Part shown: positions 1,466 to 7,168 of the stretch, one piece after another
Layout of the letters: the number at the start of each line of letters is the position of its first letter
How positions within the stretch are numbered: the first letter of the stretch is position 1
Source: Escherichia coli phage KS_S14
Strand: one strand, 5' to 3'
Sequence record: LC788706.1
Length of the DNA: 64,000 nucleotides
Made by a program: the position numbers and the translations under genes
Notes under the pieces: generated by a model
Database searches by the model: none
What the model saw: the letters and a program-made list of their open reading frames with translations, nothing else
What the model was told of the DNA's origin: nothing

Positions 1466-1813
1466 ATGATTAATGCTAAAGAAGAATTGTTACTTGCCCT
1501 AAAGAATACTAATTCTGAAGTTAAGTGTATTAAGATAGAATTCGGTTATTATGGGGACAAAGAAGTTTGGGTATTACCCGTAGGTTATACAGAAAAAGAT
1601 ATTGAAGATTTTCTAAATAATCTAGACTTTAAATATGATTCTGGTTTCGGCGGACAATTGCTTTATGGTAACGTATGGTTTACTGATGGAACTTGGTTAG
1701 AACGTGGTGAATATGATGGTTCTGAATGGTGGGAGTACAAGACTACACCAGCAATCCCTGAAGAATGCCGAACAATTAATGGTGAAGTAGATAATACTTT
1801 ACGATTAAACTAA
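1466..1813 (+). CDS. hypothetical protein
   Basis: 115 aa ORF, protein-like composition, no recognised motif. Confidence 0.45.
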   Translation: MINAKEELLLALKNTNSEVKCIKIEFGYYGDKEVWVLPVGYTEKDIEDFLNNLDFKYDSGFGGQLLYGNVWFTDGTWLERGEYDGSEWWEYKTTPAIPEECRTINGEVDNTLRLN

Positions 1814-1935
1814 TAAAATTTCAGTGCAGAACACGGAGCTAGCAATTCGGAAGTGCTGACTCATGATAAGCTGCCTATGTACTTGCGAAGCGGTCGTGTC
1901 CAAGACTCGGACTCTTGCACTGAAAACAATCAAAC

Positions 1936-2055
1936 ATTCTAGCGTGGTTGATGGGGAAACCAGCTTGGCGAGGGCAGAAGCTCGTTCGATTCGAGTGAAA
2001 GAATGGTTCTCGTAAGTCCGCACAAGTGATAACAGGTTCGAGTCCTGTCTAGAAT
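1936..2055 (+). ncRNA. tRNA-like structured RNA candidate with two T-arm-like hairpins
   Basis: 7-bp terminal pairing attctag/ctagaat encloses hairpins ctcg-ttcgatt-cgag and acagg-ttcgagt-cctgt; no canonical cloverleaf; lies in a 370-nt ORF-free gap. Confidence 0.3.
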
Positions 2056-2205
2056 GACACTATAAAGTTTACTTATTATGTAGGTTCCGATAGATCGGCG
2101 GGTCTATTCTGGCATTTAAGAGAGGTCTCGCAAACTTCTTTGTCAGCCGTGGGGTTCATAGCCTCCAGGTGGCCTACACAATAAGTAAATTTATTAAAAA
2201 TTCAT

Positions 2206-2234
2206 TTGCTATTCTGCTTAATTATCCGTATAAT
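2206..2234 (+). promoter_or_regulatory. sigma70-type early promoter (TTGCTA-17-TATAAT)
   Basis: Consensus -35/-10 with 17-bp spacer and AT-rich upstream. Confidence 0.6.
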
Positions 2235-3753: not shown

Positions 3754-3878
3754 AATTTGATGGTCAGAGTAAATTAAACCTACTATCTCGGTTGAGCTGT
3801 TTTAATGGGTTCGAATCCCAGCGAGGCGTAACTGCCTGGTGTGATAGAGGCATCATTCCACTAACATTGGAAAAACTA

Positions 3879-4109: not shown

Positions 4110-4114
4110 TACTT

Positions 4115-4205
4115 GGAAGAGCAAATCGAATTGGCGACGAAAACCGCTTGGAAAGTGGCTGACTGGTAAAACGGCTTGAGAGTTCAAATCTCTCCTCTTC
4201 CGCCA
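4115..4205 (+). tRNA. tRNA-Ser (anticodon GGA), class II
   Basis: Acceptor ggaagag/ctcttcc, anticodon loop ttGGAaa, long variable arm, T-arm gagag-ttcaaat-ctctc, CCA. Confidence 0.55.
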
Positions 4206-4217
4206 AACAATTTATAT

Positions 4218-4312
4218 GGTAGGTCAATCCAACGGCTGGCGCTGGACTCCGACTTGAAATCGGTTGATCGTAGTGATACGGTGTAAGGGTTCGATCCCCT
4301 TACCTACCTCCA
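4218..4312 (+). tRNA. tRNA-Ser (anticodon TGA), class II
   Basis: Acceptor ggtaggt/acctacc, anticodon loop ctTGAaa, long variable arm, T-arm aaggg-ttcgatc-ccctt, CCA. Confidence 0.55.
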
Positions 4313-4315
4313 AAT

Positions 4316-4451
4316 CTTGGAATATGCCGGAATTGGTAGACGGGACTGCCGAATAGGTTTACTAGGAACATCCACTCCTAGAAATATACCTTAAAAGCGG
4401 TTGAGTTAAATGGTCTAACTCATGAAGGTTCAAGCCCTTCTATTCCTTGAT
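4316..4451 (+). ncRNA. unresolved tRNA-like element (possibly class II tRNA with insertion)
   Basis: Leu-like D-loop gaattggtagac, hairpins ctagg/cctag and gagtta/taactc, perfect T-arm gaagg-ttcaagc-ccttc, no CCA; cloverleaf not resolved by hand. Confidence 0.3.
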
Positions 4452-5708: not shown

Positions 5709-5784
5709 GCGGTTAAGCACACGGGTTGTGCCGCAGGCCTTCCAAGCCTCGCTGAGTAGGGTTCGATTCCCTCTAGCCGCTCCA
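5709..5784 (+). tRNA. tRNA-Gly (anticodon TCC)
   Basis: Acceptor gcggtta/tagccgc, D-stem gcac/gtgc, anticodon loop ctTCCaa, CCA. Confidence 0.6.
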
Positions 5785-6931: not shown

Positions 6932-7126
6932 ATGTTAACAATTAAAATAATGTCAGCCAAGAATGGTGAACATATCCATACGGGCAAAAGCGTAAGCTTT
7001 AATCCTAGAAATAAGAGATTGGCTATAGTTGGAGTAGATCAAGCCATCTTTTTAAAAGAAGATGAAGTAGCATACGTCATGAACCAAACTGGTAAGACAG
7101 TTTCCGTATACTATGGAAAAGTATAA
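6932..7126 (+). CDS. hypothetical protein
   Basis: 64 aa ORF with AGGAG RBS. Confidence 0.45.
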   Translation: MLTIKIMSAKNGEHIHTGKSVSFNPRNKRLAIVGVDQAIFLKEDEVAYVMNQTGKTVSVYYGKV

Positions 7127-7168
7127 AGAATAAAGAGCTGAGCCAAATTCTAACATCGGGGAGATCTA

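Follow-up and report, generated by a model that had tools for sequence, protein, structure and literature searches.

In a stretch of 64,000 nucleotides (nt) from Escherichia coli phage KS_S14 (LC788706.1; hereafter the window), positions 1935 to 2059 can be identified with high confidence as the RNA2 gene, which encodes a non-coding RNA of T5-like phages derived from transfer RNA (tRNA). RNA2 is already a known, named gene and has been catalogued for many years (AY692264 and AJ604530). The present comparison adds to the annotation a secondary structure backed by covariation, evidence in the sequences that an insert, rather than the tRNA shell around it, has been preserved by selection across phage families, and a set of homologs from which an Rfam family could be seeded and loop mutants designed. 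Taken as a whole, the explanation that we favor, with modest confidence, is a tRNA-derived RNA with a covarying shell and a conserved module, which would act in trans as a tRNA mimic.

The RNA2 gene lies in a T5-like phage tRNA region, with 14 tRNA genes called by ARAGORN within the first 7 kb of the window. The gap between credible genes extends from 1814 to 2266 (about 453 nt), and the interval 1814 to 2267 is 96 to 99% identical to many Tequintavirus genomes. An earlier note on this DNA had described a single element in a 370-nt gap free of open reading frames (ORFs). Both points needed correction, as mechanical ORFs of 27 to 72 amino acids (aa) overlap the gap on both strands, and minimum free energy (MFE) folding divides it into three separately folding domains: 1819 to 1925, RNA2 at 1935 to 2059, and RNAIV at approximately 2070 to 2187. 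The annotated rna2 genes of phages T5 and BF23 align to window positions 1935 to 2059 on the plus strand with 100% coverage and 96.8% identity (96 to 97%) and with the same flanking genes, and the suggestion that the element might be one of the non-tRNA stable RNAs of T5-like tRNA regions proved to be right. In AY692264 (T5) and in the record of the BF23 tRNA region, a misc_RNA rna2 of 125 nt is listed as "tRNA-like RNA with unknown functions"; the gene is also annotated in AY543070 (T5) and AJ604530/NC_042564 (BF23). Length, strand, and neighbors are the same in the window, with an ORF on the upstream side and RNAIV followed by promoter P13a on the other, and the T5 copy shows a few point differences, such as U3.G70 where the window has U3-A70. 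In BF23 and Epseptimavirus, a tRNA-Gly gene is inserted between RNA2 and RNAIV, which is absent from the window and T5.

The window copy scores 145 bits with our RNA2 covariance model (R1), and blastn matches to RNA2 were found in 484 phage records. Among 60 sampled phage records, only T5 and BF23 label the gene; the remainder have either no feature at RNA2 or a "hypothetical protein" coding sequence (CDS) over the locus. Rfam searches of the region 1700 to 2450, at the gathering score and at E ≤ 10, returned only noise at RNA2, and no function is recorded in the annotation or the searchable literature. In many T5-like GenBank genomes, the RNA2/RNAIV gap is covered by a CDS labeled "hypothetical protein" or, in one case, "Rz-like spanin." These CDS calls are probably a systematic mis-annotation.

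RNA2 consists of a tRNA-like shell and an internal module (Table 1). The earlier note had pointed to a pairing of attctag (1936 to 1942) with ctagaat (2049 to 2055), which is a perfect 7-bp complementarity, and to two T-arm-like hairpins, (g)ctcg-ttcgatt-cgag(t) at 1980 to 1996 and acagg-ttcgagt-cctgt at 2032 to 2048, which were both recovered. The second of these directly abuts the 3' acceptor strand in tRNA fashion. The note had found no canonical D arm; however, tggt and acca at 1945 to 1962 form a D stem in which every pair shows compensatory change, enclosing a 10-nt loop, tgatggggaa (UGAUGGGGAA), whose GG is kept. The D-arm core in the window is non-canonical, with C8 and U14 rather than U8 and A14. 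At the position of the anticodon stem is a helix, here called P_ac, and instead of an anticodon loop the RNA carries a module of about 55 nt made up of a G-rich strand (J1), a second T hairpin (hp1), a purine linker (J2), and a hairpin containing CGUAA (hp2). A single unpaired A (J3) precedes the 3' strand of P_ac.

Homologs were collected from several sources. Beyond Tequintavirus and Epseptimavirus, blastn detected RNA2 in Pectobacterium phage My1, Pantoea phage AAS21, and Klebsiella Sugarlandvirus phages, and a match to part of the RNA2 sequence in Acinetobacter T4-like phages. Extra homologs came from pattern scans followed by R1 as a screen; loose pattern scans of IMG/VR gave mostly chance matches or ordinary tRNAs, which were removed with the covariance model. 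These homologs lie on a 164-kb IMG/VR contig (L125; 94.6 bits with R1), a 57-kb contig (L228; 43.9 bits), a metagenome contig (L267; 67.2 bits), a 159.8-kb Acinetobacter-type contig (L127), and a 167-kb contig that is filed as a bacterial bin and carries a phage-style tRNA cluster (L147). The family is present in several Demerecviridae lineages, Acinetobacter T4-like phages, and three metagenomic phage lineages. L147 was the single match when 185,579 bacterial and archaeal species genomes were scanned with one pattern, outside which the Klebsiella-phage and My1 variants fall, and the module had no blastn match in 5,426 E. coli genomes. Since the only species-genome match is on a contig of phage size, the family is apparently confined to phages.

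In most lineages, RNA2 is found within or adjoining tRNA genes; the exceptions are L125, whose 10 kb contain no tRNA gene, and L267, where the tRNA genes are distant. Canonical U8 and A14 are present in the D arms of L125 and L228. The Acinetobacter type retains P_ac (7 bp in length), the module, and the T arm and has no acceptor stem. In L127, the homolog is exactly the spacer between tRNA-Gly and tRNA-Cys, with 4 nt only from its T arm to the 5' end of tRNA-Cys. Judged from these sequences, the acceptor end is dispensable.

The covariation among these homologs supports the shell. The model alignment contained 19 sequences and the curated segmentation 17. In the model alignment, 94.9% of cells were paired, versus 81.3% in shuffles and 30 to 42% in controls with slid partners, and double changes occurred at 19 of 30 pairs; none of 500 shuffles reached the observed values. 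In the curated set, compensatory pairs were found in five helices, ranging from all seven pairs of the acceptor stem to three of the five in the T arm (Table 1), so that structural covariation across related phages, which the earlier note had named as a check, is present. The acceptor stem alone occurs as AGACAAU/AUUGUCU, UACGGGG/UCCCGUA, GACUUUG/CAAAGUC, and AGUUAAU/AUUAACU in different lineages, and the pairing of hp1 is maintained in seven different stem sequences. The tRNA shell, with its 7-bp acceptor, D arm, T arm, and anticodon-position stem, is therefore real and covarying. The variable-region equivalent is 3 to 4 nt in lineages with an acceptor stem and 1 nt in the Acinetobacter type.

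While all of the stems have drifted, the inner T loop (UUCRAUU in 17 of 17 curated sequences), the J3 A, the GGG/AGG of J1, and the C-N-CGUAA of hp2 have stayed fixed. The sequence GAAAGAAUGGUUC-N-CGUAA is near-identical in the T5 type, L125, L267, and Acinetobacter T4-like phages, with N varying and GGAAGA in phage Acj9, and the loops hardly differ between phages of the Demerecviridae and those of the Straboviridae. The J2 linker is identical in the T5 type, L125, L267, and three of four Acinetobacter-type sequences (Acj9 being the fourth), and it is variable in Klebsiella phages, My1, and L228. In hp2, the GG/CC core is invariant, N in the loop may be any base, CGUAA is at 2011 to 2015 in the window, and the loop length is 10 to 13 nt across homologs. 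Because every stem drifts and the unpaired parts remain fixed, the sequence comparison places the tightest constraint on the insert rather than on the tRNA shell. The Acinetobacter type, in which the module is kept and the acceptor stem is missing, bears this out.

Table 1. Parts of RNA2 and neighboring features in the window
Feature	Position	Strand	Evidence or remarks
RNA2 gene, tRNA-like RNA, 125 nt	1935-2059	+	Identity to annotated rna2, synteny, R1
Acceptor stem, 5' strand (AUUCUAG), pairs with 2049-2055	1936-1942	+	7/7 pairs compensatory
D arm	1945-1962	+	Stem tggt 1945-1948/acca 1959-1962; 4/4 pairs compensatory
P_ac, 5' strand (GCUUG), anticodon-stem position	1963-1967	+	Pairs with 2023-2027; 5/5 compensatory (curated 17)
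J1, unpaired G-rich strand (GCGAGGGCAGAA)	1968-1979	+	GGG/AGG core in 17/17 curated sequences
hp1, inner T-arm-like hairpin (GCUCG-UUCGAUU-CGAGU)	1980-1996	+	4/5 pairs compensatory
J2, purine-rich linker (GAAAGA)	1997-2002	+	Sequence comparison
hp2, hairpin (AUGG/CCGC)	2003-2021	+	Stem 2003-2006/2018-2021; 11-nt loop
J3, single unpaired A	2022	+	Invariant in 17/17
P_ac, 3' strand (CAAGU)	2023-2027	+	As for P_ac 5' strand
Variable-region equivalent (GAUA)	2028-2031	+	Length comparison
T arm (ACAGG-UUCGAGU-CCUGU)	2032-2048	+	3/5 pairs compensatory; T-loop consensus kept
Acceptor stem, 3' strand (CUAGAAU)	2049-2055	+	As for 5' strand
3' tail (GACA), CCA not encoded	2056-2059	+	CCA in 14/14 canonical tRNA genes of the window
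Structured element, approximately 107 nt, unannotated, closed by UUCAGUGCAGA/UCUUGCACUGAA	1819-1925	+	Independent MFE domain
RNAIV (rnaIV), "stable RNA with unknown functions," 103 nt	2078-2180	+	T5 and BF23 annotation, MFE domain
Promoter P13a, TTGCTA-17-TATAAT	2206-2234	+	10/12 consensus matches; annotated in T5 and BF23

On this sequence evidence, RNA2 is most likely a non-decoding tRNA mimic that is released by tRNA-processing enzymes, and we are fairly confident that it does not decode. A consensus scan of the gap detected nothing promoter-like upstream of RNA2, and for this reason the RNA is probably transcribed together with the neighboring tRNA genes. Because the stack of acceptor stem and T arm is tRNA-like, host tRNA-processing enzymes would be expected to release it, with RNase P acting at the 5' end and, at the 3' end, exonucleases either alone or together with the CCA-adding enzyme. 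In the proposed fold, the two T loops probably each dock on a G-rich strand, the D loop or J1, with J1 acting like a D loop for the inner T loop, which would make the RNA rigid and give it two elbows like that of a tRNA. Stacking of hp2 on P_ac would produce an arm about 4 to 6 bp longer than a tRNA anticodon arm, and an extra-long, branched arm of this kind would make decoding on the ribosome improbable. The invariant module may be the surface that is recognized by a factor conserved in both Enterobacteria and Acinetobacter.

We tentatively suggest, by analogy, that RNA2 could act in trans as a tRNA mimic, either as a decoy or as a binding partner or cofactor for a tRNA-recognizing factor. 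The target of a decoy might be a host tRNA-targeting enzyme or a defense nuclease. A decoy role is plausible because host tRNases countered by the T5 tRNA region have been documented: the tRNA-cleaving defenses PARIS (PMC11464382) and OLD (bioRxiv 10.64898/2026.07.10.737580) are both countered by the tRNA region of T5-like phages.

Several observations weigh against this reading. The MFE z-score of RNA2 is -1.3, which is unexceptional; pairing beyond chance is shown by conservation and covariation, not by thermodynamics. The hp2 stem has covariation support on one side only (A.C/U.G versus A-U/U-A), and the CC of hp2 may instead pair with the GGG of J1; the homologs do not discriminate between these pairings, because every partner is invariant. 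Another alternative hairpin, CCAUU-GAAAG-AAUGG, can form in the Acinetobacter type only and is not conserved. With a loop of variable length, hp2 is no strict mimic of an anticodon loop. Two lineages encode CCA after the acceptor stem, as ACCA in Pantoea phage AAS21 and UCCA in Klebsiella phage GlastoCabaret, which would allow the RNA to be aminoacylated, or its CCA end to be used otherwise, in some phages. The decoy role itself rests on analogy, and no conserved protein partner is found beside the RNA2 gene across the lineages compared. The ORFs upstream of RNA2 in T5 and in Acinetobacter phage Henu6 are unrelated.

Two candidate protein partners were considered and rejected. A protein with an RF-1 domain adjoins the homolog in phages Henu6 and ZZ1 only and is 2.7 to 5 kb away in Acj9 and L127. 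In Henu6, this protein is gp197 (L007, 1608 to 1838), which has 76 aa and an RF-1 (peptidyl-tRNA hydrolase/release factor) domain above the Pfam cut-off (E = 3e-10); it is encoded directly downstream of the RNA2 homolog, its GGQ is apparently replaced (...FRVGKHSNWVN...), and homologs are encoded in L128 and L127. A YqeY-like protein is absent near the L267 homolog and is common among tRNA-rich phages without a listed RNA2 match, such as those of the phi92 type. Its gene, for a YqeY/GatB-like "tRNA amidotransferase" (phrog_1460), is located in two unrelated metagenomic phage lineages 0.2 kb (L125, 3005 to 3508; E = 4e-33) and 0.8 kb (L228, 5430 to 5846; E = 2e-25) upstream of the RNA2 homolog. 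Pairing of J2-hp2 with E. coli 16S, 23S, or 5S rRNA was no better than in shuffles. The best rRNA pairings, J1 with 23S (shuffle fraction, 0.03) and the D loop with 5S (0.045), were unconvincing, being uncorrected values from nine tests.

RNA2 might alternatively act only in cis, as a tRNA-like punctuation or stability element that steers cleavage of the long tRNA/ORF transcripts by RNase P and RNase E or protects the ends of these transcripts, with no role as a free RNA. Signals of this type, in which a tRNA-like structure directs processing, are well known in other systems. Such a role would suit the position of RNA2, which is placed between tRNAs and ORFs and has nothing promoter-like directly upstream, as well as the exact fit of the L127 homolog to a tRNA spacer. 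However, a processing signal requires just the acceptor/T-arm stack, whereas the strongest constraint is on the internal module: CGUAA, the J3 A, and the inner T loop are invariant across phage families with different hosts, and the acceptor stem is the part that was lost in one lineage. We therefore regard a role in cis alone as improbable.

Less probable again is an unusual working tRNA, in which the module is spliced or processed out or decoding takes place through hp2 (CGU, Thr) or through a UCCGCA loop read as CCG (Arg). When introns were allowed and the threshold was lowered, ARAGORN did read a tRNA-Arg(CCG) interrupted at the non-canonical position 32/33 by a 48-nt intron, and deletion of nt 30 to 69 in silico forced a tRNA-Thr(CGU), in whose loop CGUAA takes positions 34 to 38. 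The CCA encoded in the Pantoea and Klebsiella phage homologs would also fit a working tRNA. However, the forced Arg(CCG) and Thr(CGU) calls are descriptions and no evidence of function. At its default threshold, ARAGORN called neither a tRNA nor a transfer-messenger RNA (tmRNA) at RNA2, also with the intron option, and the Rfam tRNA model gave no match even at E ≤ 10, so that the ARAGORN and Rfam scans, among those that the earlier note had proposed, came back negative. Genuine tRNAs match the RNA2 covariance model at 20 to 35 bits, and only with the insert deleted.

The acceptor stem with its directly abutting T arm is tRNA-like, and both covary; the D stem covaries and its loop has GG, but C8 and U14 depart from the tRNA core. 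In place of the 5-bp anticodon arm, 7-nt loop, and U33 of a tRNA, RNA2 has P_ac and the branched module; the equivalent of U33 may be U, G, A, or C across homologs, and the hp2 loop has 10 to 13 nt. If it stacks on P_ac, hp2 would also yield an arm that exceeds what the ribosome accepts. The window copy, like other T5-type copies, ends in a GACA tail, in contrast to the CCA of all 14 neighboring tRNA genes. A canonical tRNA was rejected on the lack of a default ARAGORN or Rfam match, the replaced anticodon arm, and the lack of an encoded CCA. An intron-bearing tRNA, which the earlier note had considered, was rejected likewise: the intron appears only at the lowered threshold and at a non-canonical site, the supposed intron is the best-conserved part, and this reading is also unsupported because the Acinetobacter-phage homologs have no acceptor stem. 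Rfam gave no match to a group I or other intron family at RNA2, and no bulge-helix-bulge motif was recognized in the sequence by eye. The note's degenerate tRNA is equally unsupported, since the non-tRNA insert is conserved better than the shell. In its further proposal of a tRNA-derived regulatory RNA, it is the tRNA-derived part, and not the regulatory part, that the covarying cloverleaf shell bears out. A tmRNA was rejected as well, with no ARAGORN call (by default or with -m at lowered threshold) and no Rfam match; the Klebsiella phage, My1, and Acinetobacter phage homologs do not conserve the short AUG frame of the T5 type.

A functionless origin, whether through decay of a tRNA into a pseudogene or from hairpins that came together by chance, is highly improbable. 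The ordinary MFE z-score and the tolerance of the T5 tRNA region to laboratory deletions (PMC12483538 and PMC11464382) would accord with it, but the matches in hundreds of phage records, the compensatory changes in five helices, and the near-invariant loops shared by Demerecviridae and Straboviridae phages effectively refute it. A small protein gene at this locus, which is the annotation in many GenBank records, is hardly credible: mechanical ORFs exist at 1863 to 2015 (plus strand, 50 aa) and 1805 to 2023 (minus strand, 72 aa), and a hypothetical protein feature underlies the match in several T5-like records, but substitutions are paired across stems without codon periodicity, 1-nt indels separate the lineages in J1 and hp2, no start or frame is conserved, and the T5 and BF23 curators annotated an RNA.

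A bolder form of the tRNA-mimic proposal, which we consider rather unlikely, is that RNA2 is the founder of a widespread family of two-elbow tRNA mimics whose module captures a conserved host tRNA-binding factor. Such a family would extend over Demerecviridae, Acinetobacter Straboviridae, and uncultured phages and would apparently be restricted to phages, without an Rfam entry. Its members might, for example, be RNA decoys that blunt tRNA-cleaving anti-phage nucleases, or they might be sponges or cofactors of an enzyme that modifies tRNA or of an aminoacyl-tRNA synthetase, for instance threonyl-tRNA synthetase. The E. coli threonyl-tRNA synthetase reads the GU of the anticodon.

Compared to known RNAs, RNA2 shares with canonical tRNA (RF00005) the 7-bp acceptor, a D arm with GG, a T arm with UUCRANY that abuts the 3' acceptor strand, and the location in a tRNA gene cluster. 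It differs in its branched module, where tRNA has a 5-bp anticodon stem and 7-nt loop, and in the window in C8/U14 instead of U8/A14. The T4 RNAs rnaC and rnaD (species 1 and 2) are likewise small, carry an annotation as stable RNAs, and are encoded where a phage tRNA cluster ends; rnaC itself ends in a T-arm-like hairpin. To our knowledge, both have remained without an assigned function for decades. Homology to RNA2 was rejected, as the T4 RNAs have another architecture and no CGUAA module; R1 scores 13.4 bits on most of rnaC (L117, 2906 to 3018), the level of an ordinary tRNA, and has no convincing match on rnaD. The tRNA-like domain of tmRNA and the YrlA-type Y RNAs resemble RNA2 in that a tRNA-like elbow serves as a handle on a larger non-decoding RNA and the anticodon arm is replaced by another element. 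However, RNA2 homologs have no conserved tag ORF, unlike tmRNA, and no long terminal Ro-binding stem of the YrlA kind was seen; RNA2 ends at the acceptor stem and not at the opposite pole.

Phage tRNA clusters, once curiosities, are now known as counter-defense loci, and RNA2 sits in such a locus. The RNA2 family is wider than annotated and missing from Rfam, and its module offers precise experimental targets. In practical terms, RNA2 goes unannotated in most sampled records and in some lies under a spurious "hypothetical protein" CDS.

The two other structured domains of the gap flank RNA2. The upstream element at 1819 to 1925 has no T5 annotation and shares its 3' part, containing CGGACUCU, with an element of approximately 60 nt in Epseptimavirus and My1 that is closed by a hairpin and located between tRNA-Lys and RNA2. 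RNAIV has a closing stem of 15 bp (2070 to 2084 with 2173 to 2187) in which a single A-C mismatch occurs. A degenerate T-arm-like hairpin, GGGG-UUCAUAG-CCUC, is also present within RNAIV. Rfam gave no match to this RNA, whose conservation extends to T5 and BF23 and, in part, to bobsandoy. Downstream, promoter P13a drives an ORF and the tRNA-Pro and tRNA-Met genes.

Further tRNA-like genes were observed in the window. The segment at approximately 1068 to 1141, after tRNA-Asn, corresponds to the 74-nt "RNA3, tRNA-like RNA with unknown functions" of BF23; it has an acceptor-like pairing and an ACCA end and was called by neither ARAGORN nor Rfam. Three more, at 4113 to 4206, 4217 to 4313, and approximately 4325 to 4450, also have no ARAGORN or Rfam call. 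Two of these have 7-bp acceptors, long variable arms, T arms, and CCA (GGAAGAG...CUCUUCC-G-CCA and GGUAGGU...ACCUACC-U-CCA) and are probably the T5 tRNA-Ser genes. The third, which is longer, has GAAGG-UUCAAGC-CCUUC as its terminal T arm. R1 has a weak match at 4217 to 4313, and isolated T-arm-like hairpins at 3805 to 3821 and 5757 to 5773 lie inside or adjoining ORFs. Outside the window, two RNA2-like elements have a "tRNA-Pyl" gene nearby: in L147, ARAGORN calls one with the amber-reading anticodon CUA directly upstream of the element (7053 to 7127, minus strand), and in Acj9 (L118, 256 to 328), GenBank annotates one in the same tRNA cluster, approximately 1.2 kb upstream.

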